In this document: positions 10,589-26,242 of the stretch, piece after piece
Layout: every line of letters starts with the position of its first letter
Position numbering within the stretch: the stretch's first letter is position 1
NCBI RefSeq assembly: GCF_052173895.1
Contig: NZ_JBQMXS010000004.1
Location: 3,960 to 67,959, forward strand
DNA: 64,000 nucleotides
Direction of reading: 5' to 3'
From: Catonella sp.
GTDB taxonomy: Bacteria > Bacillota > Clostridia > Lachnospirales > Lachnospiraceae
The notes under the pieces: model-generated
The model's input: only the letters and a program-made list of their open reading frames with translations
What the model was told of the DNA's origin: nothing
The model's database searches: none
Translations under genes and position numbers: made by a program

Positions 10589-10628
10589 ATCTGTCAAAAT
10601 TGACAGATGTTTTTCTTGAAACTATGTT
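10589..10628 (+). promoter_or_regulatory. Palindromic operator ATCTGTCAA-AA-TTGACAGAT overlapping a sigma-A promoter (TTGACA-17-TATGTT), copy 1
   Basis: Palindrome at 10589-10608, -35 at 10600-10605, -10 at 10623-10628. Confidence 0.75.
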
Positions 10629-10678: not shown

Positions 10679-11533
10679 ATGGAAAAAGCAACGGTAAATA
10701 TGAAAAACTGGAAACTTAGAACTAGAGGCGAAGATTATAACTTATCAGGGACTGCAGACAGCCATCCGAGGCTTGGCAATAATACATATATAGGCTGCAC
10801 TTCATACTTAGTTAGCTATACATTAGAAGACGATATTTTAACTTATGAAACAAGAAATACTATTTATATCTGCCCATTAAAATATATGGTAGAAGCAGAT
10901 GAAGGCTCTAAAGCCAGCATCTTAAAAGAGTACTATGAGAGTCCCGAGCTTACAGAACACCTTAATGAGCTTATGCTGATTGGCCAGAGAGAAAGAGAAG
11001 AAGAAAAGAAAAAGTACGAAGAGCATCTGCTAGAAGTCGCAAAAGGGTATGAGGACTGTATTTATATTGAAATGAAAAGAATTACAAATGGAGATATGCT
11101 TGCTTATAATATAGGAGGCAAGGCAGGACTTGTTGAGCCACATAAGCATATTAGTGACAGGCAGGATAGTATTTTGTATATGAGATATCAGGAAGATGAT
11201 GAGGAAGCAAGCCTTGATTTTAGGTATTGGCCTATGGAAGATCCGGATGATATACCAGTGTTTGTGATGAACGATGAAGGTGAATTTGTTGAATTACCAA
11301 GAGAGCGTAAAGTGAAAGAAAAGCAAGAAGTTGTCACATATAGCTGGTCAGATAATATAAAAAGAGCAGTTATAAAAAATGACTCCCACATTCTTATAGA
11401 ATTTAATGGCGTAGATATAGCTATTGGTGAGACAAAGGTATTTGGGGCAGACCGTCATGTAGAGGGATTACTTAGTCCGGACTGCTATAATGGGAAATCC
11501 TGCTTAACTCCGGGAGAAAAGAGAAATGATTGA
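10679..11533 (+). CDS. Hypothetical protein (284 aa)
   Basis: GAGAGG SD, directly downstream of cassette promoter 1. No recognised domain. Confidence 0.7.
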   Translation: MEKATVNMKNWKLRTRGEDYNLSGTADSHPRLGNNTYIGCTSYLVSYTLEDDILTYETRNTIYICPLKYMVEADEGSKASILKEYYESPELTEHLNELMLIGQREREEEKKKYEEHLLEVAKGYEDCIYIEMKRITNGDMLAYNIGGKAGLVEPHKHISDRQDSILYMRYQEDDEEASLDFRYWPMEDPDDIPVFVMNDEGEFVELPRERKVKEKQEVVTYSWSDNIKRAVIKNDSHILIEFNGVDIAIGETKVFGADRHVEGLLSPDCYNGKSCLTPGEKRND

Positions 11534-11615: not shown

Positions 11616-13295
11616 ATGGCGGACATCAATCTTCCGGTCGGCAACTCAAACTTTGCTGACATTATAGAGAATAATTACTACTATGTGGACAAAACCGGGC
11701 TTATAGAGGAGATCCTGCGTGATAGAGGAGTCCAGGTAACTTTGATTACCAGACCTAGGCGCTTTGGGAAGACTCTTGCAATGACTATGCTTGCTGAATT
11801 TTTTGATATTACCAAAAGCAGCAAGTCTGTTTTTGATGGGCTTAATATCGCTAAAAACAGTGAGCTTATGGAAAAATGGCTGAATAAGTGGCCGGTGGTA
11901 TATATTTCATTTAAAGATGTGGTAGGGATTGATTTTACAAAAAGTTATGGGATGCTAAAAAATACAATATCAGATTTATTTATAAAAAACTATTATCTCA
12001 AAGATAGCAGCAAAGTAAATGAAATAGATAAAAAAGTGTTTTTAGAAATAGCTGATAAAGTAGAGGGCAGGCCTACAGATGATCAGATTAAAACAAGTCT
12101 TGCACTGCTTATGAGGATGCTAAAAGCTCATTATGACAGGCCTGTAATTTTGCTTATAGATGAGTATGATGTTCCGCTTGCAAAGGCAAGCGAGGATAAG
12201 GAACACTATGAAAAAATGCTCGATATTGTAAAACCTATGCTTAGTTCTGCTATTAAGGACAATCAGGCATTGAAGCTGGGAGTGGTTACAGGCTGTCTTA
12301 GGATAGCTAAGGAAAGCATATTTACAGGAACCAATAATTTCGTTTCAGATACAATATCAGATATAAGGCTGAATGAGTATTTTGGGTTTACTCAAAATGA
12401 GGTTGACAAAATTTTAACAGAGTCAAAATTAGAATTTGCCGCTGGAGATATAAAAAAATGGTATGATGGATATCATTTTGGAGAAACCGATGTATATTGT
12501 CCTTGGAATGTTATGAATTATGTAAATAGCTTACAGAACAACCCTAAAGCGAAACCGGTAGGATATTGGAAAAACTCGAGTGACAATATGATAATTCGTT
12601 CATTCATTGATAGTGCAAAAGGAGCAATTACAGGGAAAATAGAGACTCTGCTTTCTGGAGGCAATATTATAGAGAATATCAATGAAGATTTGACATATCA
12701 GAATTTACACGAATCTGAAGACAATCTATGGAGCATACTATATCTTACAGGTTACTTGACTTTGGAAAAAAAAGAAGAGAGTTTTTGTGTATCTGAAAAT
12801 GGTTTTAGCTTAAAAATACCTAATTTAGAGGTGAAAACTATATTCGAAGATACGATAAAAAAATGGTTTGAAGACAGTGCTAAGTCGTGGGATAGAAATA
12901 AGCTTTTTCATGCAGTCTGGAATGGCGATGACAGAGTGATTACCGATGAAATGACAAAGCTGCTTAGGAAGACTATCAGTTATCATGATTACAAAGAAGA
13001 TTTTTATCATGCATTTTTGGCTGGAATATTTGCAGGAGCTGGATATGCAGTAGAGTCAAATAGGGAGCATGGAGAAGGCAGGAGTGATATTTTAATCAAA
13101 GATTTTGAAGAGAGTAAAGCTGTAATTTTTGAAGTAAAATGTTCAAAGCAGGTAAAAGACCTTGAGAGAGACTGTCAAAAGGCAAAAGAACAGATAGAAG
13201 ATAAAAATTATGGAACAGAAATGGATGATGAAGGCATTGATGTAAAAGCATATGGAATATCATTTTGGAAAAAAAGATGTATGGTAATTATATAG
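11616..13295 (+). CDS. AAA-ATPase-like protein with C-terminal PD-(D/E)XK nuclease (DUF1703-type)
   Basis: LPVG..F..I....YYVDKT, RPRRFGKT, LLIDEYD and WYDGY in the ATPase part. The C-terminus has SNREHGEGRSDILI...IFEVK. Confidence 0.9.
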   Translation: MADINLPVGNSNFADIIENNYYYVDKTGLIEEILRDRGVQVTLITRPRRFGKTLAMTMLAEFFDITKSSKSVFDGLNIAKNSELMEKWLNKWPVVYISFKDVVGIDFTKSYGMLKNTISDLFIKNYYLKDSSKVNEIDKKVFLEIADKVEGRPTDDQIKTSLALLMRMLKAHYDRPVILLIDEYDVPLAKASEDKEHYEKMLDIVKPMLSSAIKDNQALKLGVVTGCLRIAKESIFTGTNNFVSDTISDIRLNEYFGFTQNEVDKILTESKLEFAAGDIKKWYDGYHFGETDVYCPWNVMNYVNSLQNNPKAKPVGYWKNSSDNMIIRSFIDSAKGAITGKIETLLSGGNIIENINEDLTYQNLHESEDNLWSILYLTGYLTLEKKEESFCVSENGFSLKIPNLEVKTIFEDTIKKWFEDSAKSWDRNKLFHAVWNGDDRVITDEMTKLLRKTISYHDYKEDFYHAFLAGIFAGAGYAVESNREHGEGRSDILIKDFEESKAVIFEVKCSKQVKDLERDCQKAKEQIEDKNYGTEMDDEGIDVKAYGISFWKKRCMVII

Positions 13296-13350: not shown

Positions 13351-13390
13351 ATCTGTCAAATTTGACAGATGATTTCTTCTAAGCTATGTT
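13351..13390 (+). promoter_or_regulatory. Perfect 20-bp palindrome ATCTGTCAAATTTGACAGAT overlapping a sigma-A promoter (TTGACA-17-TATGTT), copy 2
   Basis: Palindrome at 13351-13370, -35 at 13362-13367, -10 at 13385-13390. Confidence 0.75.
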
Positions 13391-13425
13391 AAACTTATTA
13401 TGAGTAAATGATAAAAGGAGTAGCC

Positions 13426-15180
13426 ATGTCTTATTGTAAGAAGTTTTTGCCCTATAGCAGGGACAATGTACCCTTTGTGATATTAAAAGAGCGAATAGAA
13501 AATGTATCAGGAAATGAATGTCTTATAAAGAGAGCCTGCCTTGCACTGTCAGCAGGAGGGATACTGAAAAGACCGCCTTATGAAGAAGACCTGTTTAATA
13601 CATATGGTATAAGCTGCGATTATATTGATGAAGAGAGTATAGCTGAGATTTACGAAAATTGTCCTTTGATAGACAGAAACATCATCATAGTCACTGAGCA
13701 AGAGGAAGTAGGAGTAAAGGCAGGGGTACTTTTAGCAAATTATGTAAAAATACTGCAGAAAGTATATGTAGATGCAGAGCTTGAAGAAAATGGTTATGAC
13801 ATTTATGATGATGAAGATGAGGGAGAAGTCGAGGGTATACTTCATTATGACAACTTTGATGAAGGGTTTAGTGTGTTTAATTTTACTTCAAATAAAGGGC
13901 TGGTAGAAATTTGTGATGTGATAGACCTTTCATTTGTACCGGAAGATGTAAAGGGAGAGTATCATTATGGCGACAGATTTACAAAAAGCCTGACGCCTTT
14001 TGTAATTGTGACAGGGCTAAAGCCTGATAGATATCTTGAAGCAAGGCTCTCAGGCATAGCTACAAGCAGGAATGCGCTAAGAATAATGGTTATTAATCAT
14101 GATACATATTTTAAGCACGAAATGCAAGTTTACCTTATGGATAAGGACTGCACTACTGTTGTAGTGGATGCTGTAGAAGATTCATACTACGAAGGCGTAT
14201 TAAAAAGGCTTTTGGCATTGCAGGAGCTTAAAATAAAAGAAGAAAATATAAGCAGGTTCATATTTAGGACAAAGCGTATATTTGGAAAAAACTTTTCAGA
14301 AGAAATGCTTGTTAAAATTGTAACAGATGCTAAAAAATCTAAAGATAAAGCAAGAGATAAAGGCAATGGAGAGACAGATGAAAAATATTTTGGAAGATTT
14401 TTTGAAAAGGAAGACAGTGCGAGAGAAAAACTTAGCAAAATGAATGGCCTTACTGAATTCAAGGCTTTAGTTAAAGAATACTTGGCTGTCTTAAAAGCAG
14501 AGAGAGAAAATAAGAATCTTAAAACTATGCATAGAAACTTGATATTTACAGGAAGGCCGGGTACAGGCAAAACTACTTGTGCAAAGCTCCTTGCAGACAT
14601 TTTATCTGAAGAAGGTATGACCAATGCTACATTTAATATGGTGAGCAGAGCTGACATCATAGGAAAGTATATAGGCCAGACTGCGCCTAAGATTACAGAG
14701 CTTTTCAATAATTCAAGGAATGGCATTATTTTTGTGGATGAGGCCGGATTTTTTGCAAATGATGCAGAAAGTGCCAATAGCTTTGTAAAAGAGGCAATTA
14801 AAGAGTTTGTAAGGTATATGGAACTTTATCCTGATGTGATAGTTATCTTTGCTTTATATGATAATGAACTGCAAGACTTTTTGAGATTGGATAAGGGGCT
14901 TGAATCAAGGATAAGGAAGACTATATATTTTAAGGATTATAGTGTACCTGAGCTGGTGAGGATTTTTGAAGAAAAGCTTGATGAAAATGGATATAGTATG
15001 GCGAAAAATTTGGGAGAAAAGCTTGAAGAAATTTTTGAAAATGAAATAAAGTCAGAGAATTTTGCTAATGCAAGGACTGTAAGAAAGCTTGTAGAGGAAG
15101 CAATTACAAAGTTTGGCATAAGGACTTTTAGGGAAGAAAACCCTGAAAGAGTGATAATTTTAGAAGATATATCAAGATAG
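13426..15180 (+). CDS. CbbX/SpoVK-like AAA+ ATPase with an uncharacterised N-terminal region
   Basis: GLTEFK, NLIFTGRPGTGKTT.A, RADIIGKYIGQTAPK, GIIFVDEA, GLESRI, F.DYS..EL and NFANARTVRKLVE. Start moved to the ATG after the AAGGAG SD. Confidence 0.85.
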   Translation: MSYCKKFLPYSRDNVPFVILKERIENVSGNECLIKRACLALSAGGILKRPPYEEDLFNTYGISCDYIDEESIAEIYENCPLIDRNIIIVTEQEEVGVKAGVLLANYVKILQKVYVDAELEENGYDIYDDEDEGEVEGILHYDNFDEGFSVFNFTSNKGLVEICDVIDLSFVPEDVKGEYHYGDRFTKSLTPFVIVTGLKPDRYLEARLSGIATSRNALRIMVINHDTYFKHEMQVYLMDKDCTTVVVDAVEDSYYEGVLKRLLALQELKIKEENISRFIFRTKRIFGKNFSEEMLVKIVTDAKKSKDKARDKGNGETDEKYFGRFFEKEDSAREKLSKMNGLTEFKALVKEYLAVLKAERENKNLKTMHRNLIFTGRPGTGKTTCAKLLADILSEEGMTNATFNMVSRADIIGKYIGQTAPKITELFNNSRNGIIFVDEAGFFANDAESANSFVKEAIKEFVRYMELYPDVIVIFALYDNELQDFLRLDKGLESRIRKTIYFKDYSVPELVRIFEEKLDENGYSMAKNLGEKLEEIFENEIKSENFANARTVRKLVEEAITKFGIRTFREENPERVIILEDISR

Positions 15181-15191
15181 GCATAAGGAGT

Positions 15192-15719
15192 GTGAGCATG
15201 ATTTATTTTACATCAGATTTACATTTTTACCATAAAAATGTCATTAAGCATGCAAACAGGCCTTTTCAAAATGTGGAAGAGATGAATGAAAAGCTTATTA
15301 AAAACTGGAATAACCGGATAAAATCAGAGGATGAAGTTTATATTTTAGGAGACTTCACTATGAAAGGCACTGAGTATGCTGCAGAGATTTTAAGGAAACT
15401 TAAAGGAAAGAAATATCTGATTAAAGGAAATCATGATAACTTTGTAAATCAGGAAACTTTTGATAATTCGCTTTTTGAATGGGTAAAAGATTATTTCGAA
15501 CTGCAACATAATAACCAGAGCTTTATCATGTTTCATTATCCTATAGAAGAGTGGAATCATTTTTTTAGGGGAGCAATCCACTTACATGGACATCAGCACA
15601 ACAGCCCGGAATACAATATATTAAATGAAGAAAAGGGGCTTAAAAAGTATGATGTAGGAGTGGATGCCAATTATATGAAACCTGTGAGCATAGAGGAGAT
15701 AATAAAGTTTTTTGGCTAG
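15192..15719 (+). CDS. Calcineurin-like metallophosphoesterase (short, phage/COG4186-like)
   Basis: FTSDLHFYH, YILGDF, KGNHD, FHYP, HLHGHQH and DVGVDA motifs. Confidence 0.9.
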   Translation: MSMIYFTSDLHFYHKNVIKHANRPFQNVEEMNEKLIKNWNNRIKSEDEVYILGDFTMKGTEYAAEILRKLKGKKYLIKGNHDNFVNQETFDNSLFEWVKDYFELQHNNQSFIMFHYPIEEWNHFFRGAIHLHGHQHNSPEYNILNEEKGLKKYDVGVDANYMKPVSIEEIIKFFG

Positions 15720-15733
15720 AGAAGGGAGAAAAA

Positions 15734-17236
15734 ATGTTTTATAAGTTTGATGAGTGCATAGAATATATGAAGAAGGCGGGGCTAAAAGTAAAGTGGAGAG
15801 AAGAGGCTGAAGAAAGAGTAGACTTAGAAGAACTATCAGATATTCCAGGTTTTGAATGGATTGAAAAAGATAACTGTATTCATATGGAAAGAAATCCTTA
15901 TTTTAGGATGAGAGGAAAGAGAGTTACAAAGGAGCAGGCATTTGACATAATAAGCAGAGAGAGTGAACACAAGAGAGACTTTATGATAGAGAGGACTGAA
16001 AAGATAATAGAAGAAAGACCAGCTCTCCAGTTTGGCGAAATAAGGCTGCACTATACCCATGGTCTTGACCAAATACAGTCTTGGATAGATCCGGATGGAG
16101 CAGTAGGAGAAAATAATTACTGTGCATGGAAGTACCCTGAAGGCCTGAAACTTATAGAAGAACATATGCTAAATGCCAAAAGGTATCCTTATCTTAAATA
16201 TGTAATAATATATACCATACATGATGCAAGAATGCAGGATGACTTATATAATGCATATGGAATTTTTTATGACATTGAAGACAGGATGTTCTGGGGAGGG
16301 TTTGAGTATGCACTCTGGGTACATGATGGCGGAGTTGAAAGAGTGGATAAAGATAAAGCAAAAGAACTTTATGAAGAATATCAGTCAGAATATCCTTGTA
16401 ACGAAATGTTTATGCGAGATGATTGGAATAAGTACATAAAGCCATATTTAGATGAAGAGTATGTTAAGAGATTAAGTAAAGCTTGGAAACAGACAGAAAA
16501 AGAAAAGGCTGATATGCTTTCATTAAATATATATGACCGTCCAACATCAGAAGTAAATTTTGAGAATTATTATGAATCACTTATTAGACATAAAGAATAT
16601 TTAGAGATGGATTATTCAAAGGAATTTTGTGAAAAGGTTTACAGAGTTTTGGCGGCTGCTGCAAAGGAAGTTGAAAGATTTAGGGATGGAGAAGTAGAGC
16701 CAGGTGAATTAGACATGCAATTTTACTGGGATATTATGAGAGAGATTAGTAAAAATAAGGATGAACATACTATTGACGATGAGATTGAAACGACTGAGCT
16801 TGTGGTTAAAAGTTTTCTGGAAAAATTTTATGATGGAATGGAGATTGAGGCTTTAGTATATTTTAGGCTTGATGGAGAATACATGGCTAAGCTTAGGGAT
16901 TATGTAGGAAGTGGTGAAATTCATTTTGATAAGATTACCAGATTTTTAAAGGAGGATGAGGGGGAGACTGATGAGTCTATAAAAAAGTTTCTTGATGATA
17001 TAGAGTTATTTGGTGACGAGAACTTAAGGAAGATGGTGCTCTCTTATGTTGATTATAAGCAAAACGAACCAAACAAGCGTATACCTTGGGAAGACTTTGC
17101 AAAGGGATTAAAAGAATCATTGAAGAATACTGATATAAAAGTAGAGTGGAATGGCAAAAAGATATTTTTTATTAAGGGTGATTTAACTATATTTATTGAG
17201 AAAAAAGACATAAAGAAGTTCAATAGTGAAGATTAA
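15734..17236 (+). CDS. Hypothetical protein (500 aa)
   Basis: AGGGAG SD and operonic spacing. No confidently assigned domain. Confidence 0.7.
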   Translation: MFYKFDECIEYMKKAGLKVKWREEAEERVDLEELSDIPGFEWIEKDNCIHMERNPYFRMRGKRVTKEQAFDIISRESEHKRDFMIERTEKIIEERPALQFGEIRLHYTHGLDQIQSWIDPDGAVGENNYCAWKYPEGLKLIEEHMLNAKRYPYLKYVIIYTIHDARMQDDLYNAYGIFYDIEDRMFWGGFEYALWVHDGGVERVDKDKAKELYEEYQSEYPCNEMFMRDDWNKYIKPYLDEEYVKRLSKAWKQTEKEKADMLSLNIYDRPTSEVNFENYYESLIRHKEYLEMDYSKEFCEKVYRVLAAAAKEVERFRDGEVEPGELDMQFYWDIMREISKNKDEHTIDDEIETTELVVKSFLEKFYDGMEIEALVYFRLDGEYMAKLRDYVGSGEIHFDKITRFLKEDEGETDESIKKFLDDIELFGDENLRKMVLSYVDYKQNEPNKRIPWEDFAKGLKESLKNTDIKVEWNGKKIFFIKGDLTIFIEKKDIKKFNSED

Positions 17237-17257: not shown

Positions 17258-19093
17258 ATGAAGAAGTCAGAATATGAAAAAATTATGACAGAAGCAGAGG
17301 AGAAGGAAAGATTGGCAGAAATAGAAAGAAACAGACCAGTATTAGAAGAAGTTATAATTGGAGAAAATGTAAAGAGCCTTAAAGAAGTTCCAGAGGAGGT
17401 TTATGACAAAGCCAAAAAGATAATTGTTGCAGACAATATAAAAGAAATACCGGATGAGTTTTTTATGAATCATCACTACATGGAAGAAGTCTGCCTGCCT
17501 TTTGGACTTGAAAAAATTGGGGATAGGGCGTTTAGAGCGTGTGAGAAGCTTACATCCGTAAGGATACCGGATACAGTGACAAGTATAGGTAAATGGGTGT
17601 TTTCAGCTTGTGATAAACTTAACGAAATAATACTGCCTGATTCTCTTAGAGAAGCAGGAGACTATGCTTTTTATTGGAACAAAGTAAAGAAGATAAAGCT
17701 TCCTAAAACTGTAGAAAAGCTGGGAGCAAGATGTATAGCTTCAGATATTGAAGAAATAGAATTAGATGAAAATAATGAGAATTTTAAACTTGTAGGAAAT
17801 ACTATATTTAGCAGAGATGGCAAGAGCATAGTAATGGTGTTTAACAAAATTAAAAGGGAGAGAATATATGAGATACCTGAAGGTGTAGAACATATTGAAG
17901 AAGATGCTTTTGCTTTCTGCCGCTTTTCAAAGATTATTGTGCCAAAGAGCATGAAAAAAATAGGAAAAAGGGCATTTTATGAGGCTTTGGCTGATGAAAT
18001 TGTACTTCCTGAAGGGCTGAAAGAAATAGGAGAATATGCATTTTCAAGGAGTGAACTTCTGCGAATCAAGATTCCTGAGAGCATAAAAGAAATTAAGAAA
18101 GGTACTTTTGATACAGCAGAGATAAGAGAGATAATTTTACCAGACAGCATAGAAACTTTGGGATATAGGGCATTTAACAGTATAAGCCAGACAGAAGAGA
18201 TAAAACTGCCTAAGAATTTAAAAAGAATAGGAGCAACATGCTTTGAACACATTTATTTAAAAAAATTGGTAATTCCTGACAGCGTGGAGTTTATTGGAAG
18301 CTACGCAATAAGCAGCCTGGATCTTGAATATACCAATATTCCAAAGTCTTTAAGGGAAGTAGGAAACGAGGCTTATGGCTGGAAGAGAAAATATAAGGCA
18401 GATGAATTTCCAAAGAATCTTGAAGTAATTAAAAGTGATGCTTTTGATGCTTTTTCTTTTGGAAGGACAGCAACTTTTGGCAAAAAGCTTAGAGAAATAG
18501 GAGTATCATTACCAAAAGACATATATGATTTAACTCTTTATGACAATCTTTTAAAGGTAACAGGCAGAGCTTGGGATGAGAACGAGAAAAAGGAAATAGA
18601 ATTAGAATTTGGTAATAACATTTTTAAGCTTCGTAATCATAGGGATGATGGACATGGAGTCATAATAAATGTAAAATCTGCCAAAACCGATGAACTCAGA
18701 TATAGCATATATTTGCCTGAAAAACTAGATATTTCAGATACCTGGGGAGAAAACTTTGAACCAGATTTTGATGCTTATGACAGAGCTTTTGAAAAGTTAA
18801 CAGAGGAAGATGAAAAGCTTATCATGGCTTTTTCAAGGCTCGATTGTCCTTACAAGCTAAGTGATGAAGCGAGGAAAAGATATGAAGATTGCTTAAAAAA
18901 TGTAACAATGAGCATGTCAGGTACAGCTAAATTTATCAAGAACCTCATAGCTGCCAGAGGCATTCAGATAGTAGACAGGCTTAGTAAATACAACATTATT
19001 ACTAAAAAGGTTCTTGACAAACTTATAGAAAGAGCAGAGATTATGGATGAAAAGGAAGAAGCTGAATATTTTAAAGCTTATAAGCTTTCATAA
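17258..19093 (+). CDS. BspA-type leucine-rich repeat (LRR_5) protein, no signal peptide
   Basis: Repeated LPxGLxxIGxxAFxxC / IPDSVxxIG units. The N-terminus is charged. Confidence 0.9.
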   Translation: MKKSEYEKIMTEAEEKERLAEIERNRPVLEEVIIGENVKSLKEVPEEVYDKAKKIIVADNIKEIPDEFFMNHHYMEEVCLPFGLEKIGDRAFRACEKLTSVRIPDTVTSIGKWVFSACDKLNEIILPDSLREAGDYAFYWNKVKKIKLPKTVEKLGARCIASDIEEIELDENNENFKLVGNTIFSRDGKSIVMVFNKIKRERIYEIPEGVEHIEEDAFAFCRFSKIIVPKSMKKIGKRAFYEALADEIVLPEGLKEIGEYAFSRSELLRIKIPESIKEIKKGTFDTAEIREIILPDSIETLGYRAFNSISQTEEIKLPKNLKRIGATCFEHIYLKKLVIPDSVEFIGSYAISSLDLEYTNIPKSLREVGNEAYGWKRKYKADEFPKNLEVIKSDAFDAFSFGRTATFGKKLREIGVSLPKDIYDLTLYDNLLKVTGRAWDENEKKEIELEFGNNIFKLRNHRDDGHGVIINVKSAKTDELRYSIYLPEKLDISDTWGENFEPDFDAYDRAFEKLTEEDEKLIMAFSRLDCPYKLSDEARKRYEDCLKNVTMSMSGTAKFIKNLIAARGIQIVDRLSKYNIITKKVLDKLIERAEIMDEKEEAEYFKAYKLS

Positions 19094-20316
19094 TATGCTA
19101 ATGTCTCTTTAAGCTTTGTCTTTATATCATCAACCAGTTCTTTAGGGGCAAGAGCAACAATCCTTGGAAATGGGCTAAAAACTGAGGTCTGCTGCTGTAA
19201 ACAGAACATAAGTATGCTTTCGCGGCAGACTCTTTTAAGCTCTATCTTGCAAAATGATATGGATCTGCCATTAATTTCTGCCACTCTTTCAGAAGGATGA
19301 ATTTTTACTTTATGGCCAAAGTAGTCTATGATTACTGAAAGAGAGGAAACAGGGCATTCTAACACCACATCAGTTAGAAAGTTCTGGCTGTCTGAGGCTG
19401 CTATCATCAAAGGAAAAATGGAGGCATATCTATCTGCATCAAACTCATTGTTTTTATAAAAAAGTTTGAGTGAGCCGGGAATAGGGTTTCTTTTTTCAGG
19501 GACTAAATTGCCATTTTTATCCTGAGTCTTATGAAAAACAGCTTTTTTAATTCTGTCTATGCGGTAGTGTGACGGATTTTCATAATCATTAGCTGTAGCG
19601 ATCAGGTACTGGTGTCCGTTATTCCATAAAAGAGCATAAGGATTTATTATATAAGGACTTTCAGCATTTTTAACTTTTAATTTTGGCTTTATAGGTATCC
19701 TAGTGCGGTCTAAGGAATATTCGCCATAAGTAAGTTCAAGCTGATAGCCTTTTTTGATAGCCTCAAAAATAGTCTGTATGCTGTAGAACCAGTTGCTTAC
19801 CTGATAAGGATTTGTTTTATCTATAGAAACCGGCCGCTCAAGGTTAGAGGCTTTAGTAAGCTCTCTGCCAGCCTGCACAGGGCAAAGCAAATCTTCTACA
19901 GAGGTAAGATAGTCCTTTTCTTTGTCTGAAAGGTATTTATCAGAAATTATGGAACCTTTAATCATATTTAGATCGCTTGGATTAATGAAAGGCTCAAAAT
20001 AGTATTTTTTTGGTTTGCCATCTAGGACAATGAGCTTTCCGCCATAAACGGCAGATATTGTATCATAAACATTTTCTATATCTTTAATATCAAGTATGAT
20101 GTCAGTGAGCCTTCTGGCCTGCTTTTGGAAAGGTATTATCTGAACCAATTCGTTTTCAATCTCAGTAGCAGTCAATGGACTCTCGGCAGAAGATTTGGTC
20201 TGAAGTATATAGACCATGAGGTTAAACCAGATAGGCTGTGATAATGGGTCTTCAGTATACACTTTGCCAGCAGGCAAAGAATTGTATTGGGACTTTGCAG
20301 TAGTTTCGGCAGACAT
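19078..20316 (-). CDS. WYL-domain transcriptional regulator (N-terminal wHTH)
   Basis: N-terminal ILQTKSSAESPLTATEI (wHTH-like), then AIKKGYQLELTYGEY, INPYALLWNNGHQYLI and HYRIDRI (WYL), and C-terminal LAPKELVDDIK. Start set at the ATG after GGAGG. Confidence 0.85.
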   Translation of the reverse strand: MSAETTAKSQYNSLPAGKVYTEDPLSQPIWFNLMVYILQTKSSAESPLTATEIENELVQIIPFQKQARRLTDIILDIKDIENVYDTISAVYGGKLIVLDGKPKKYYFEPFINPSDLNMIKGSIISDKYLSDKEKDYLTSVEDLLCPVQAGRELTKASNLERPVSIDKTNPYQVSNWFYSIQTIFEAIKKGYQLELTYGEYSLDRTRIPIKPKLKVKNAESPYIINPYALLWNNGHQYLIATANDYENPSHYRIDRIKKAVFHKTQDKNGNLVPEKRNPIPGSLKLFYKNNEFDADRYASIFPLMIAASDSQNFLTDVVLECPVSSLSVIIDYFGHKVKIHPSERVAEINGRSISFCKIELKRVCRESILMFCLQQQTSVFSPFPRIVALAPKELVDDIKTKLKETLAYYESL

Positions 20317-20400: not shown

Positions 20401-20790
20401 ATGACAGTAAAACAATTTATAAATACAGAACTTTATAAAGAACTAAATTTAGGCAATTATACCGTACTTGTTGCAGATCCGCATATCAATGAATTCATTA
20501 GAGACAGGAGTAAAATATTTGTAGGCATTGGCGTAGGCAGGGGTGGAATGGATATTGAGGCTGCAACAAAAACGGCATTAGAGAATGTGAAGAATCAAGT
20601 TGGCGGCAAAACTTTTGACAGAAGAATAGTTTTTATAAAAGGAAACATATTGAAGTCTGACTTATATGTGGCAAGCAGTGCTTCATGGGACAATAATTTA
20701 TTCAGTGAAAATGGAGCGGAAACTCTGATGGGATTTGGATATACAGACAAAGATGAAGAGAAAATAGTTGTTTATGTAGCAGTTGTATAA
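20401..20790 (+). CDS. Stand-alone FtsZ C-terminal-domain-like protein, paralogue 1 (diverged)
   Basis: IFVGIGVGRG..IEAATKTALEN...IVFIKGNI...TLMGFGYTDKDEEKIVVYV matches the FtsZ C-domain pattern (MGIGxAxGxxRAxEAAxxA...IFG...DEIxVTVI). Confidence 0.55.
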   Translation: MTVKQFINTELYKELNLGNYTVLVADPHINEFIRDRSKIFVGIGVGRGGMDIEAATKTALENVKNQVGGKTFDRRIVFIKGNILKSDLYVASSASWDNNLFSENGAETLMGFGYTDKDEEKIVVYVAVV

Positions 20791-20861
20791 AATATAAAAA
20801 AGTACAGAAAATGTCCGTTTGATGCGATATAATGATTATAAATTAAATCTAGGAGGGAATT

Positions 20862-21245
20862 ATGAAGATAGAAGAATTTATGAAATCAGAGCTTTGCGCA
20901 AGGATATTAATGAAAGATAAAGATGTAGGGTTAGATAATCAAGACCTGGAAACTTTGTTTAGAGATAAGGAGGAGGTATCAGCATTTACCGGCATTGCTG
21001 ACGGAGAAAGAAATGTGCAGCTTGCAGTAGAAGCGGTACTGGAAAATATCAAGTTTAATGGAAAAGAAAAGAAATTTGAAAGAGCTATTTTAATGATTGA
21101 GGGAGACCTTACGATGCAGGATGTTTCAGAAGGTCTTGATATAATGAGAGAAGAAATGGTAACATCTGATGCAGATTTGATATTTGGCAGTAAATATGTA
21201 GAAAATAGTGAGAAGAGAGTAAGGGTTGATGCAATTATGGTATAG
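20862..21245 (+). CDS. Stand-alone FtsZ C-terminal-domain-like protein, paralogue 2
   Basis: VGLDNQDLETL (cf. T7 loop INLDFADVKT), TGIADGERNVQLAV, ILMIEGDLTMQDVSEG and DADLIFGSKYVEN...VRVDAI. Confidence 0.7.
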   Translation: MKIEEFMKSELCARILMKDKDVGLDNQDLETLFRDKEEVSAFTGIADGERNVQLAVEAVLENIKFNGKEKKFERAILMIEGDLTMQDVSEGLDIMREEMVTSDADLIFGSKYVENSEKRVRVDAIMV

Positions 21246-21257
21246 TGTGGAGGGTGT

Positions 21258-21884
21258 GTGATAACTAGAGAAGAAGCTATTGATTATGGATTAGCATTTC
21301 AGGATGCATATCTGGATATGCCTTTTAAGGATACAAACTGGCAGTTAATCAGAGTAAAAGGCAGTAAAAAAGCCTTTCTTTGGGTATATGAAAGAGAGGG
21401 CTGTATAAATCTCAATGTAAAAGTCTCTCCGGAGTGGAGAGATTTTTGGCGAAAAGCCTTTAAGTCGGTTATAGCAGGCTGGCATCAGAATAAAGAGCAT
21501 TGGAATACAATTATTTTAGATGGCTCTATTCCTGAAAAAGATATAAAAACTATGATAGCCGAGAGTTATAACTTAATTACAGATTCACCGACTAAGCGGA
21601 TATATGAAGCTGTAAAGAAGATTCCTAAAGGTAAGGTTGCTACTTATGCACAGATTGCAGAAATGGCAGGAGATAGGAAGATGGCAAGAGCTGTAGGAAA
21701 TGCTCTCCATAAGAATCCGGATCCTGAGAACATTCCATGTTTTAGGGTAGTAAATTCAAAAGGAGAATGCTCGGGTTCTTTCGCATTTGGAGGAAATGAA
21801 GAGCAGGCTAAGAGGTTGAGGAAAGATGGGATTGAGGTTATAGGCAATAAGGTTGATTTGTTAAAATATAGTATTAAGATTTAA
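21258..21884 (+). CDS. MmcQ/YjbR-domain + O6-alkylguanine alkyltransferase (MGMT) DNA-binding domain fusion
   Basis: The N-terminus has NLNVKV, AGWHQNKEHWNTIILDG and IAESYNL (YjbR). The C-terminus has IPKGKVATYAQIA, ARAVGNAL and IPCFRVVNSKG. Confidence 0.85.
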   Translation: MITREEAIDYGLAFQDAYLDMPFKDTNWQLIRVKGSKKAFLWVYEREGCINLNVKVSPEWRDFWRKAFKSVIAGWHQNKEHWNTIILDGSIPEKDIKTMIAESYNLITDSPTKRIYEAVKKIPKGKVATYAQIAEMAGDRKMARAVGNALHKNPDPENIPCFRVVNSKGECSGSFAFGGNEEQAKRLRKDGIEVIGNKVDLLKYSIKI

Positions 21885-21924: not shown

Positions 21925-23082
21925 ATGAAGTTTTTTCATATTTCAGATTTGCATATCGGCTTAAAACTTGAAAATAAAGATTTAAGTGAAGATCAGCGAT
22001 ACATACTAAATGAAATAGTAAGAGAGGCTGAATTAAAAAGACCGGATGCCTTAGTTATAGCAGGGGATATTTATGATAAATCATTGCCGTCAAATGATGC
22101 AATAGAGATTTTTGATGAATTTATATTAAAATTGTCAAAGGCTGTACCTAAGATGAATATTATGATTATTAGTGGTAATCATGACAGTGCGGTAAGGATT
22201 AACCAGTTTAGAAAATTACTTTCAAGAAACAACATATATCTAATAGGACAACCACCAAGGACGGTTGATGAGTTTATTGAAAAAATTGAATTTAATGATG
22301 AGTTTGGAAAGATAAATTTTTATCTTTTACCCTTTGTTAAGCCATCTTATGTAAGAAATACATTAGGACTTGCTGAGAATGAAAACAGCCTTTCTTATGA
22401 TGAGACTTTGCACAGACTTATTGAGAGGGAAGATATAGATAAAAATGACAGGAATGTATTGGTGAGCCATCAATATTATGTTCCTGTGAATAAGAACCCT
22501 GAGGAAGTGGACAGGATGGAGTCAGAAATTATCTCGATAGGAAATATAGATATGGTAAGGGCAGATATACTCGAATACTTTGATTATTCTGCTCTTGGGC
22601 ATATACATAAACCATGGAAGGTAATGGGAGAATGTCATAGATATTCAGGTACTCCTCTAGCCTGTTCTGTAAGCGAAGCAGGGCAGGAAAAGGGAATAGT
22701 TATGGTAGAAATGTTTGAAAAGGGGAGGATAAATACAGAGGTTATTCCGTTAAAATCTTTGAGGAAAATAAGGGTTGTAAAAGGTAGTATTACAGAAGTT
22801 TTGCAAGAGGGTTCTAAAGATTATGTGAAAATTATAGTTGTCGGTGAGCATGTGTCAGATATCGACCTTGCAGATAGGATTAGAGATAAGTTTCCTAATT
22901 ACTTGGAGATTTGTAGGGAGAATTTTAGTAAAGGGGATGCTAACAGAGTGGCAGAAAGTTCAGATGAATTGAGTGAAATAGAAAATTGCAGACTATTTTT
23001 AAAAGAGTTAAGTGCTGAAGAGGAGGTGCTGTTGGCTAGCTTTATAAATGAGTTGAAAGAGAGGTTGGTAAATGAGGCCTAA
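21925..23082 (+). CDS. sbcD: Exonuclease SbcCD subunit D
   Basis: HISDLHIG, AGDIYD, SGNHDS, ALGHIH and YSGTP motifs. Confidence 0.95.
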   Translation: MKFFHISDLHIGLKLENKDLSEDQRYILNEIVREAELKRPDALVIAGDIYDKSLPSNDAIEIFDEFILKLSKAVPKMNIMIISGNHDSAVRINQFRKLLSRNNIYLIGQPPRTVDEFIEKIEFNDEFGKINFYLLPFVKPSYVRNTLGLAENENSLSYDETLHRLIEREDIDKNDRNVLVSHQYYVPVNKNPEEVDRMESEIISIGNIDMVRADILEYFDYSALGHIHKPWKVMGECHRYSGTPLACSVSEAGQEKGIVMVEMFEKGRINTEVIPLKSLRKIRVVKGSITEVLQEGSKDYVKIIVVGEHVSDIDLADRIRDKFPNYLEICRENFSKGDANRVAESSDELSEIENCRLFLKELSAEEEVLLASFINELKERLVNEA

Positions 23083-26000
23083 AAAACTGGTTATGCAGGC
23101 GTTTGGCTCTTATAGTAAAAAAACTGAAATTGATTTTACAAAACCTAAGCAGAATTTATTTTTGGTTACAGGGGATACGGGTGCAGGAAAAACAACAATT
23201 TTTGATGCCATTGTATTTGCACTTTATGGTGAAGCTAGTTCGGAAAGTAATAAAAAGTCCGGACAGGAACTTCAAAGTCAGTTTTCGGACTATGGCGATG
23301 AACCTTTCGTAGAGCTTACATTTACAGAAATGGATGGAGCTATTGAAAAGGAATTCAGGGTTCGCAGAGTCCCTAGACATATCAGGCCTCTTAAGAGAGG
23401 AAGTGGATATAAGTCAGAGAATGAAAAAGTTTCTCTTTTTTTAGAGGACAATAGTGAATGGTCTCAGAATATAAAGGAAACTAATGCCAAAATAGAGGAA
23501 TTAGTTAAACTTTCTAAAACTCAGTTTATGCAGGTATCAATGATAGCTCAGGGTGAGTTTATGAAGGTGCTTAAGGGAGATGATAAACAGGAGATTTTTA
23601 GAAAGTTATTTGGTACTGAGATATATCAGAAACTTATAGAAGGATTAAAAATTAAAAGTAGCCAAAAAAATGCTGAATTCAAAGACTTTGGTTTAAGATG
23701 TTTACAGTATATCAGAAGTATTAGAGTGTTAGAAGGTACAGAAAAAGACTATGGTTTTTCAGAGATAAAAAATGAGGCAGGTATAACAGAGATTGAAAAA
23801 ACGGTAGTTGCCTTGGAAAACCTTTGTACAGAATTAAAAGAAAATATAAAGATAAAAGAGATAGAAAATAGTGAAATTTTAGTTAAACGAGATACGAAAA
23901 AAGGGGAGCTGGCTGAGGGAAAACTCCTTTTACAGTCGTTTGTAGAACTTGAAAAGTCTGAGGAAAAGTTAAGGTATCTTGAGTCGCAAAAAGAAGAAAT
24001 AGAAAGTTTGACAAAATTAGTTAAAGATATTGAGCTGGCTTATGAATTAGAAACACTTTATAAGAATTTTTGTGAGGCAGGAGAAAGATTAAAAAAGAGT
24101 GAGCAGGAGTTAGAGGAAATTAAAACTAAAATTCCACAATATGCCTCAGCTTATGAAAAGTTTAGTAAAAAAGAGAGTGAAACAAGGGAAGAGTTTTCGT
24201 TAAAATCAGAGCAGTTTAATAAGATTTCTGAAAAAGTAGCTAAAGCATTAGAAAGTTTTTCCAAAATAAAAGCAAAGAAATCAGAACAGGTTATCAAAGA
24301 AGACGCTAGGGTAAGTGTTGCAAGAGATACTGATAATGCAAAAAGGGAACTTGAAAAATTTGAGGCAGATGAAAAAGAATGGAGAGAGACGGTAAAGGGG
24401 CTGTTGGTTCTTGAGAAGAAACAGATAGATGTAAAAAATCAAGTTCAGAACCTTAATAATATAGAAAATGAGCTTACTTTGTTGATGCAGACAGATAGAA
24501 AGCTAATTACTGAAAAAGAAGAATTAAAGAAGTTCACTATAACATTTAAGGATGATCTTGATAAGTTTAACTTCGTAGAAAAACTTGTTGCTGATAAAAG
24601 AAAAACTCTGTATGAGCAGAGAGCCGGTGTTCTTGCAAAAAATTTAGAAGAAGGAAAGCCTTGTCCTGTATGTGGCTCGACATCTCATCCGTCACCCTGC
24701 ATGGCTGTAGATGGTGTGCAGGAAGTGACAGAAGAGGAAATAGAAGAACTTGCAGAAAAATCTAACAGGCTTAAAGTGAGTGTTGATGAGAAACTATATG
24801 AACTTGAAAGAAACAAGGCTATGTTATCAGAACGAGATAGGCATTTGGAAGAAAATAAGGGTAAATTACTCCAAGTTATAAAAGAAAATTTTTTTGAAAT
24901 TGAAGATAGTGCAAATCTAGAAAGTATTACCGGGAAGATAACGTCGTTTTTAAGTGAAAAAAATATTGAATTAAATAAGATAAATAAAGAAATAAAAGAA
25001 GTTAGGGTGATAGAAAGTAAACTTTCTATTGCTGAAGAAAATGAGATTATATTAAGGAAGTTAGTTGAAGATGCTAAAGAAAAAGAACTGAAATTAGATA
25101 GAGAACTTTCAGGAATAAGCTCGGCAATAAAAGAACTGGAAGATGGACTTGAATATCTTACAGAAGAAGAGGCAAATAATGCTATAAGAGATGAAAAAAA
25201 GAAGAAAATAGAAGTAGAGGGGAGGTATGAGGAGGTTGTTAAAAATTGCAGAGAGGCAAAAAGCATCAAAGAACAGGCGGAGACCTTGATTTCAAGGCTA
25301 GAAGTAGACATACCTTTACTAAGAGCTGAAGAAGAGAATAAGAAAAATGAATATATGACTGCATTATCAGAAGATAGCTTTTATGAAGAAAATTGGAAAA
25401 AACTGGTACAATCATATAAAAAGTTTGAAAAAGATGAAAAACAGAGTATAATTAATAAGTATATATCTGATAAAAATACAGAAGAAAAAATTGTGGATAG
25501 ATTAAAAGAAGTTACTAGAGAAAGACAGAAACCTGATATATCCTTATTACAGGAAGAGGTAAGAAAGTTTGAAGAATTATATTCAAGTCTGAATTTGGAA
25601 TTAGAAAAATTAAAAACTGTTTATAGCATAGATGAAGATGTATTAAAAAACTTAAAGATAGAGCTGGCAGGCAGAGAAGAAAAAGCAAAAGAATATGCAC
25701 TCATTACCGGACTTGCCAAAAAGATGTCCGGTACTACTACCGGTTTAAGAATGGATATTGAAACCTTTGTACAGAGGCAGTATCTAGAGAAAATACTTGT
25801 TTCAGCTAATAAGAGGTTTAATGATATGTCTGCAGGCCAGTTTGAGTTAAGGACTTATGAGCTTGATAAGGCAAGTGAAGGTAAAAATAGAGGATTATCA
25901 CTTATGGTGTATTCTCATATTACGGGAAAAAGCAGGGATGTAGGTACACTTTCAGGTGGAGAATCGTTTATGGCAGCCTTATCATTGGCACTTGGTATGG

Positions 26001-26242
26001 CGGATCAAATTCAGGAAAAAAGTGGTGCTATAAATCTTGAAATGATGTTTGTAGACGAAGGTTTTGGCACGCTTGATGATAATTCCAGAAATAAGGCAAT
26101 AAGAATATTAAAAACTATGGCAAATGGGTCAAAACTGATAGGAATTATTTCACATGTGAATGAGTTAAAGCAGGAAATAGATGAACAACTTATTGTAACT
26201 AAAGATGAGAACGGAAGCAAGGTGAGATGGCAGTTAAACTAA
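23072..26242 (+). CDS. sbcC: Exonuclease SbcCD subunit C (SMC-like)
   Basis: GDTGAGKTT, Zn-hook PCPVCGS, LSGGE, FVDEGFGTLD and IISHV, with long coiled coils. Confidence 0.95.
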   Translation: MRPKKLVMQAFGSYSKKTEIDFTKPKQNLFLVTGDTGAGKTTIFDAIVFALYGEASSESNKKSGQELQSQFSDYGDEPFVELTFTEMDGAIEKEFRVRRVPRHIRPLKRGSGYKSENEKVSLFLEDNSEWSQNIKETNAKIEELVKLSKTQFMQVSMIAQGEFMKVLKGDDKQEIFRKLFGTEIYQKLIEGLKIKSSQKNAEFKDFGLRCLQYIRSIRVLEGTEKDYGFSEIKNEAGITEIEKTVVALENLCTELKENIKIKEIENSEILVKRDTKKGELAEGKLLLQSFVELEKSEEKLRYLESQKEEIESLTKLVKDIELAYELETLYKNFCEAGERLKKSEQELEEIKTKIPQYASAYEKFSKKESETREEFSLKSEQFNKISEKVAKALESFSKIKAKKSEQVIKEDARVSVARDTDNAKRELEKFEADEKEWRETVKGLLVLEKKQIDVKNQVQNLNNIENELTLLMQTDRKLITEKEELKKFTITFKDDLDKFNFVEKLVADKRKTLYEQRAGVLAKNLEEGKPCPVCGSTSHPSPCMAVDGVQEVTEEEIEELAEKSNRLKVSVDEKLYELERNKAMLSERDRHLEENKGKLLQVIKENFFEIEDSANLESITGKITSFLSEKNIELNKINKEIKEVRVIESKLSIAEENEIILRKLVEDAKEKELKLDRELSGISSAIKELEDGLEYLTEEEANNAIRDEKKKKIEVEGRYEEVVKNCREAKSIKEQAETLISRLEVDIPLLRAEEENKKNEYMTALSEDSFYEENWKKLVQSYKKFEKDEKQSIINKYISDKNTEEKIVDRLKEVTRERQKPDISLLQEEVRKFEELYSSLNLELEKLKTVYSIDEDVLKNLKIELAGREEKAKEYALITGLAKKMSGTTTGLRMDIETFVQRQYLEKILVSANKRFNDMSAGQFELRTYELDKASEGKNRGLSLMVYSHITGKSRDVGTLSGGESFMAALSLALGMADQIQEKSGAINLEMMFVDEGFGTLDDNSRNKAIRILKTMANGSKLIGIISHVNELKQEIDEQLIVTKDENGSKVRWQLN

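Follow-up and report, generated by a model that had tools for sequence, protein, structure and literature searches.

A 64,000-nucleotide stretch of a Catonella sp. genome (the window; contig NZ_JBQMXS010000004.1 of assembly GCF_052173895.1, positions 3,960 to 67,959) raises the question of why two short genes that resemble only the C-terminal half of the division protein FtsZ stand in tandem between a gene for a WYL-domain regulator and a set of DNA-repair genes. A sequence-only reading of the window had proposed that such a protein binds one filament end, stimulates hydrolysis and blocks elongation, as a division checkpoint triggered by DNA damage or phage. We find that the two proteins, P0001 and P0002, are FtsZ C-terminal domains carried by a mobile cassette headed by the WYL gene, and we assign a probability of about 0.4 to the reading that P0002 is an inducible, FtsZ-derived binder of the GTP face of FtsZ that would slow division by sequestering FtsZ or jamming its treadmilling.

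P0001 (129 amino acids; 20401..20790, + strand) and P0002 (127 amino acids; 20862..21245, + strand) are each preceded by a ribosome-binding site and are paralogues with 22% identity end to end (BLASTP E = 2 × 10−11). P0002 extends from the end of helix H7 to the last strand of FtsZ (T7, H7 and H8 are element names in the E. coli style), matching residues 203-314 of the host FtsZ with 33% identity (E = 6 × 10−12) and the Pfam profile FtsZ_C (PF12327) with E = 0.0013 and 19.5 bits, under the cut-off of 27, near which a third copy from the same genome scores 26.4-27.2 bits. A profile of ten family members found 16 PDB sequences at E ≤ 0.1, all 16 of them FtsZ. The AlphaFold models of P0002 (pLDDT 88.6) and of P0001 (pLDDT 82.3, built with an alignment of FtsZ-C-like relatives) both have residues 188-311 of FtsZ as the best match of 48,161 chains (Z = 15.3, root-mean-square deviation 2.5, 118 residues and 20% identity for P0002; Z = 13.6, root-mean-square deviation 2.6 and 117 residues for P0001). 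Both proteins are FtsZ C-terminal domains (FtsZ-C); P0001, the more diverged of the two, is assigned by paralogy and by its model, because it has no FtsZ_C match of its own in the Pfam scan. NCBIfam gave only weak ftsZ matches, far below the cut-off.

Neither protein is FtsZ proper (TIGR00065; Pfam Tubulin plus FtsZ_C). They share with it the fold and sequence of the C-domain from the end of H7 and, in P0002, the aspartates of the T7 loop, and the nearest true FtsZs are those of the host genus; in contrast, the GTP-binding domain with its GGGTGTG motif, the linker and the conserved tail peptide are absent, both proteins stopping at the last strand, polymerisation by the known interface is not available to them, and they are island-borne and patchy in distribution. 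Counted from the next upstream stop the open frames measure 134 and 130 amino acids, and therefore neither has a fused N-domain. The T7 motif N-x-D-x-x-D (N211, D213 and D216 in the host FtsZ) reads G-L-D-N-Q-D in P0002, where both aspartates are present and glycine replaces the asparagine, and it is gone from P0001. The sequence-only reading had described two paralogues of ~128 residues with an FtsZ C-domain match, no GTP domain and no tail, of which the second keeps both T7 aspartates and the first lacks the motif; sequence, profile and models bear this out (the fold search for both proteins, the Pfam match for P0002 only), with the lost asparagine of P0002 as an addition. The possibility that the pair are fragments of a broken ftsZ was excluded by their own starts and stops, by the intact ftsZ elsewhere in the genome and by the frames kept in orthologues.

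Compared to the orthologue, the ratio of nonsynonymous to synonymous substitution rates (dN/dS) was 0.30 for P0001, 0.47 for P0002 and 0.33 for the third copy (Fisher p = 6 × 10−4, 0.01 and 1 × 10−3 vs. neutrality), and 0.09 for yjbR over 86 codons. The close homologues in the protein collection (48 and 6) have intact frames. One homologue, 71% identical, carries the label Catonella sp. These values indicate that the FtsZ-C genes are working genes that evolve fast.

The cassette is headed by the WYL gene (412 amino acids from its ATG; 19078..20316, − strand; PF13280, E = 1 × 10−9), which is divergent from P0001; it has no Pfam helix-turn-helix or WCX match at E ≤ 1, leaving the full DriD/PafBC architecture unconfirmed. 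The host genome contains an intact ftsZ within a division cluster on contig C7, which encodes its only tubulin GTP domain, and two further stand-alone FtsZ-C copies, an intact third (G000:C56:8191-8568) and a partial fourth at the start of the window's contig (G000:C4:1-132, 4 kb before the window), each with only the first codons of yjbR behind it, an arrangement suggesting that cassettes inserted more than once at the 5' end of yjbR and stand, diverged, in a tandem array. Contig C56, which judging from genome G005 probably lies directly upstream of C4, carries a diverged copy of the whole cassette. Its counterparts are 77% identical for a 284-amino-acid gene of no family (10679..11533, +), 92% for a SpoVK/CbbX-like AAA+ ATPase gene (13408..15180, +), 80% for a 500-amino-acid gene of no family (15734..17236, +), ~49% for a BspA-type leucine-rich repeat gene (17258..19093, +), 67% for the WYL gene and 56% for FtsZ-C, and it holds decayed copies of the calcineurin-like phosphoesterase gene (15192..15719, +). 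The genome has two WYL genes, one per cassette, each adjoining an FtsZ-C gene. None of the nine other genomes of the genus (one of them 76% complete) has an intact stand-alone FtsZ-C, one having a remnant, and none has the host's WYL gene, one carrying a distant WYL; the gene order WYL, P0001, P0002, yjbR is shared with a metagenome contig of a relative (L038). In G005 a deletion scar (L094, G005:C158) joins the cassette's first promoter to the 3'-terminal ~40 codons of an FtsZ-C gene ahead of yjbR, and this species therefore appears to have lost the cassette. P0001 and P0002 are members of a mobile WYL-headed cassette.

Upstream of P0002 lies a candidate WYL-activated promoter (20803..20833, +), TACA-N5-TGTC-N12-TATAAT, containing TGTCCG-N10-TATAAT; the consensus of the mycobacterial regulator PafBC is tGTCgg-N10-tA-N3-T (PMC8635444). 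In the orthologous L038 the elements GACA-N5-TGTC and TATAAT are retained although the spacer separating them has changed, and the N5 form occurs three times in G328. The pattern [G/C]ACA-N6-TGTC-N12-TAnnnT was picked out by eye in 257 kb of Campylobacterota loci (L048-L069 and L083), where it has 21 occurrences compared to a mean of 0.17 and a maximum of 2 over 30 shuffles; most of them lie 40-76 bases upstream of a gene start. Its 3' part is spaced as in the PafBC consensus, and the site before P0002 shares this spacing. The pattern is found at 8 of the 18 loci, directly before the FtsZ-derived gene at four, 220 bases before it at one and at the operon head at three. No WYL-type site was seen before P0001. 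A different element, the palindrome CTGTCA-N4-TGACAG, stands at a fixed distance before an extended -10 as a candidate WYL operator of the 284-amino-acid gene (10591..10606, +), and again before the AAA+ gene (13353..13368, +); it was first seen on C56, and the window then gave 2 matches vs. 0.06 expected. Across the genome this palindrome, of the form TGTC-N6-GACA with an extended -10 behind it, has four occurrences; every one lies in the two cassettes, one of them ahead of the third FtsZ-C copy. Scans for the palindrome and for TGTC-N12-TAnnnT found no genome-wide DNA-repair regulon, and a generic promoter scan was uninformative (8 sites vs. 5.6 expected). WYL control of P0002 and of the third copy is likely from these motifs, and the candidate regulon looks local to the cassettes.

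In a search of cluster representatives, we identified 73 matches, which included full FtsZs, C-domain-only proteins of 117-167 amino acids and proteins of 265-290 amino acids without the GTP loop. The Campylobacterota sample comprised 91 + 111 genomes (~194 distinct, the overlap counted by eye), from which every second FtsZ match was fetched save one weak one (G311); after a full-length match (G282) and a contig-edge piece of true ftsZ (G334) were dropped, at least 18 eroded or half ftsZ copies remained, in 17 genomes. Scoring of 250 Lachnospiraceae and 299 other Clostridia genomes gave at least 16 with a second match, and inspection of each of these 16 yielded at least two eroded copies of 240-241 amino acids (G171 and G763); no C-domain-only copy was among them. 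Distant copies could escape such scans, and the counts in both groups are lower bounds. The copies form a graded series of near-full-length proteins (326 amino acids), proteins with an eroded N-domain (240-271 amino acids) and C-domains only (108-172 amino acids), with broken copies in G281, G328 and G005, and FtsZ is split into separate N-domain and C-domain genes in G281, G379 and probably G470 (L048:5941-7473, L065:819-2309 and L067:7204-8120).

Of the 20 half or eroded ftsZ loci, which include related, non-independent genomes, nine have a WYL-type gene within 4 kb (7 of 18 in Campylobacterota and 2 of 2 in Clostridia, the G763 gene being called from HTH_PafC and a custom profile), and 12 have one within 16 kb. 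The remaining eight comprise three on contigs of at most 5 kb and five with none nearby, one of which is a plain tandem ftsZ duplicate. WYL genes number one to three in each of the 10 genomes counted, and closeness by chance is therefore expected at ~1% per locus; as a control, the WYL profile matched none of 10 Clostridia loci with full-length ftsZ. The WYL link of half and eroded ftsZ genes is general and recurs in two phyla, so that this part of the sequence-only reading holds beyond its own locus, where a PafBC-like promoter before P0002 can be added to it. Further neighbours are double AAA ATPases, cREC, Macro, Sir2, PD-(D/E)XK nucleases, GmrSD, McrBC, Fic, leucine-rich repeat and toxin-antitoxin genes; cREC has been tied to NAD-processing and WYL conflict systems (PMC7824862). 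In G763, a WYL-type regulator, an eroded 240-amino-acid ftsZ, mcrB and mcrC form one co-directional row (L072:2984-7987). Stand-alone pieces of other essential proteins occur in the Campylobacterota WYL islands, namely sigma-70 region 4 (53-87 amino acids; intact at three loci and broken at one), FtsK gamma (48 amino acids, one locus) and the DnaA ATPase (248 amino acids, one locus), at L048:6777-6935, L053:7943-8203, L065:2314-2547, L054:6620-6763 and L067:9872-10615.

Comparison of P0002 to 34 FtsZ C-domains placed five proteins of its own genus among the six best, ~5-10 bits above other Lachnospiraceae, which fits what is expected of a protein that must fit the host FtsZ, and the 14 Campylobacterota copies with a known place in a genome all match FtsZ of Campylobacterota better. 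A tree of 34 rows under a mixture model, which omits 11 long-branch rows including P0001, joins the family to the host genus FtsZ at 100/100 by way of a very long stem and places the Campylobacterota copies beside the FtsZ of their hosts. Repeated birth of the FtsZ-C copies, each from the host's own ftsZ, is favoured by these placements but not proven, because the approximately unbiased (AU) test does not reject a single clade of all stand-alone copies (p = 0.216) and a simpler first tree (LG+G4, 45 rows) put the family with other long branches.

How such a protein might act follows from the geometry of the filament, in which each subunit inserts its T7 loop into the GTP site of the adjoining one. 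In Staphylococcus aureus FtsZ, D210 and D213 hold the catalytic water and each of N208L, D210N and D213N abolishes assembly; the growing end is the one that exposes T7, and incoming monomers attach by their GTP face (PMC8936486). Mutants of the bottom face are toxic and those of the top face are not, and it is to the bottom face that the inhibitors SulA and MciZ attach (bioRxiv 2020.02.25.965095, which cites Redick 2005 and Du 2018). A C-domain-only protein carries the bottom face alone and therefore could bind only the GTP face, on monomers or at the shrinking end, and could not cap the growing end. Under our preferred reading, the WYL protein would sense single-stranded DNA arising from phage attack or DNA damage and turn on the PafBC-like promoter before P0002; P0002 would dock by its T7-loop/H8 face onto the GTP face of the host FtsZ and, mimicking the growing end of a filament, capture FtsZ-GTP monomers or occupy the shrinking end and jam treadmilling. 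Near-stoichiometric amounts would be needed, and the predicted outcome is a reversible division delay. P0001 may be a further-diverged copy that no longer acts through the same surface, as a partner or modulator. Of 25 short copies, 24 retain D216, 18 retain D213 and 8 retain N211 (17 of the copies have no genomic context, and gene-call fragments may be among these); for the other residues that do not vary among 34 true FtsZs the count is 4 to 19. This pattern points to a T7/H8 face that is still in use, with catalysis doubtful. A WYL-induced block of division has a precedent in DriD-DidA (PMC9186387).

Several results weigh against this reading. Top-face binders made by mutation were reported not to block division (bioRxiv 2020.02.25.965095; PMC8936486), P0002 is only 33% identical to the FtsZ it would bind, and the T7 asparagine is absent from it and present in just 8 of the 25 short copies. 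The conservation of the aspartates may be structural, because S. aureus D213 also shapes the loop (PMC8936486), and the search profiles carry the T7 residues and so favour copies that keep them. P0001 is under selection despite its lost T7 motif, and a separate N-domain gene upstream offers an alternative partner at three Campylobacterota loci. As to control, TGTC-N12-TAnnnT is not enriched genome-wide (8 of 1820 genes vs. 14.3 expected) and precedes neither yjbR nor sbcD, the 21 motif occurrences in Campylobacterota are not an independent test because of the way the pattern was picked, and the AU result leaves room for a single origin.

Among known systems, DriD-DidA of Caulobacter (PMC9186387) and PafBC of mycobacteria (PMC8635444, PMC11804915) share with the cassette a WYL regulator and, as candidates in the cassette, a promoter of the tGTCgg-N10-tA-N3-T type and a small division-related target, whereas DidA targets FtsN and is not FtsZ-derived, and the candidate regulon here is confined to the mobile cassette and includes no genome-wide set of repair genes. 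We infer that the cassette would work like DriD-DidA with an FtsZ-derived effector and a cassette-sized regulon. SulA and MciZ are likewise small proteins at the FtsZ polymerisation interface, as is predicted for FtsZ-C, but they bind the bottom face, of which the C-domain is a copy; no relation to either emerged from the Pfam scan, the PDB search with the family profile or the fold search of P0002. In BrxR/CapW systems (PMC9122601, PMC11662680) a WYL gene also heads a defence-type cluster, comparable to the G763 row; those regulators are described as repressors, whereas the promoters here look activator-type, and an FtsZ-derived cargo is not apparent in the parts of their descriptions drawn on. 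The closest stand-alone structure is Npun_R1471 (PDB 3c8l, 'FtsZ-like protein of unknown function'), which has ~120 amino acids and the FtsZ C-domain fold (Z = 7.1 and 6.7); with 8-12% identity, without the first 25-30 residues of the models and far below the FtsZ score (15.3), it is a separate lineage. Rare FtsZ/tubulin effector domains occur in other conflict systems (PMC7159879). The literature searched, outside which lay subscription journals and supplements such as gene-neighbourhood tables, yielded no description of stand-alone FtsZ C-domains or eroded ftsZ under WYL control; a WYL stress or defence regulon is a known kind, and the FtsZ-derived effector within it is apparently undescribed.

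The genes behind P0002 bear on the original explanation, a hydrolysis-stimulating cap that blocks elongation within a DNA-damage checkpoint operon together with MGMT and sbcDC. Its neighbour list was correct, with the WYL gene divergent and a YjbR-MGMT fusion (21258..21884, +), sbcD and sbcC (21925..26242, +) downstream; P0002, yjbR-MGMT and sbcD all point the same way, only 12 and 40 bases separate them, and the + strand shows no terminator-like site in between, so that read-through from P0002 into yjbR-MGMT and sbcD is possible. Nevertheless, yjbR-MGMT is present in 6 of the 9 other genus genomes, and in four of these relatives (G004-G007) sbcD comes next, either immediately or beyond a small insert, and the region in front holds unrelated genes or a deletion scar; the four lack the WYL gene and intact FtsZ-C genes. 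The repair genes are thus a resident block, in which sbcDC keeps its place after yjbR-MGMT even in cassette-free relatives, and the island, bordered by the 5' end of yjbR-MGMT, sits at its edge. Neither MGMT nor sbcDC was found among the neighbours scanned at the 20 other half or eroded ftsZ loci, so that of the proposed co-occurrence with WYL and sbcCD genes the first half stood (9 of 20) and the second did not (0 of 20), and the link to DNA repair is not supported. The cap would also be at the wrong filament end, since by the published polarity growth occurs where T7 is exposed and a C-domain-only protein is a top-face binder, a class reported to be non-toxic; stimulation of hydrolysis is doubtful because the T7 asparagine, needed for S. 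aureus FtsZ assembly, is lost from P0002, even though both aspartates are kept. With no motif-defined repair regulon either, this form of the explanation is very improbable.

The main rival, though still rather unlikely, is a decoy function, in which the domain displays the FtsZ bottom face and soaks up or reports phage or rival FtsZ inhibitors without acting on FtsZ, the islands being sets of baits built from parts of essential proteins. The retained half belongs to the non-toxic class and has the face bound by SulA and MciZ, the neighbours are of defence type (McrBC, GmrSD, Sir2, Macro, cREC, Fic, toxin-antitoxin pairs), a bait would naturally evolve fast and multiply into paralogues, as these genes have done, and the idea has been put forward for inactive conflict domains (PMC7159879). 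The sigma-70 region 4, FtsK gamma and DnaA ATPase pieces in the same Campylobacterota islands fit it too, but they fit dominant-negative shutdown equally, and none was found in the host cassette, where no coupled effector was identified either. Moreover, the surface has drifted to 33% identity with the host FtsZ and mimicry is therefore weakened, and P0001, P0002, P0056 and five FtsZ-derived genes elsewhere matched no family of PADLOC-DB 2.0.0 at E ≤ 0.001. Another partner or a new job, such as action on a different tubulin-family GTP domain (a separate N-domain or a phage tubulin) or a fold repurposed, for example for a P0001-P0002 pair, could account for the split genes in G281, G379 and probably G470, for a P0001 conserved without T7 motif, and for the occurrence of the fold on its own (3c8l, Z = 7.1, 8% identity) and in Rid/chorismate-mutase enzymes. 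It is improbable: in the host, Pfam and a profile of degenerate N-domains found no second N-domain, in the cassette or elsewhere; phage and plasmid collections yielded no stand-alone copy, and the strongest conservation remains at the catalytic aspartate of FtsZ. More improbable again is that extra ftsZ copies caught in islands simply erode, GTP-face versions being toxic and purged while C-domain pieces survive as harmless remnants. Such decay would produce the graded size series with its broken copies, the patchy distribution (intact in 1 of 10 genus genomes) and a dN/dS above that of yjbR, but not a dN/dS below 1 in all three orthologue pairs, kept ribosome-binding sites and promoter, intact frames in dozens of sequences or repeated placement behind WYL-type promoters; nor would it explain the kept T7 aspartate, whose loss could not make a C-domain toxic.

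For P0002 as an inducible binder of the FtsZ GTP face, the wider context is that the FtsZ inhibitors compared (SulA, MciZ) all bind the bottom face and engineered top-face binders were reported harmless. If the reading is true, a natural top-face binder that is under selection and has arisen repeatedly would put the polarity model of treadmilling to the test in living cells and offer another means of manipulating division; should the proteins be baits, they would point to FtsZ-attacking phage proteins and a bacterial decoy strategy. Both can be tested together on these proteins, which are small, confidently folded and have a predicted promoter, in a host notable for four FtsZ-C copies, two cassettes and a traceable origin. 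A bolder generalisation, tentative and at present rather unlikely, is that several phyla have repeatedly cut their own essential genes (FtsZ C-domain, sigma-70 region 4, FtsK gamma, DnaA ATPase) and placed them under a WYL activator that senses single-stranded DNA, where they would hold back division, transcription and replication in a dominant-negative way or bait the phage inhibitors of these machines, P0002 being one of a set of undescribed inducible self-mimic effectors.

The remaining observations concern mobile elements and distant relatives. The plasmid collection gave no match to P0002, the records listed for two distant copies in the phage and plasmid collections were ftsZ-annotated or unannotated, and Foldseek against viral models gave a single match at E ≤ 0.001, a full-length FtsZ. 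A phage origin of P0002 found no support in these searches, its sole phage-collection match (L040, MT835561.1) being a chromosomal division cluster with a full ftsZ; the record is filed as a bacteriophage, yet is a stretch of chromosome. Within the island lies a gene for an AAA-ATPase-like/PD-(D/E)XK nuclease (11616..13295, +), and the left island part (L071:403-9160 on G000:C4, mostly the window's first 5 kb) contains a 1649-amino-acid gene with partial PADLOC TmtA matches and an SNF2 helicase gene. A short dispersed repeat (G000:C56:8042-8133), present on at least eight other contigs, separates the third FtsZ-C copy from its operator. A perfect TGTCGG-N10-TA-N3-T stands 61 bases before the gene at G000:C9:37161-39191 (− strand), which may be a coincidence given the lack of genome-wide enrichment of the pattern; the start of this gene resembles GyrB/ParE. 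As a lead, the ESM Atlas holds 28-30 unnamed look-alike clusters of 118-142 amino acids, some from Bacteroidota or Campylobacterota and one labelled FtsZ_C, and one protein, P0115 (862 amino acids), is a fusion of TIR, tubulin/FtsZ, FtsZ_C and FtsK domains.

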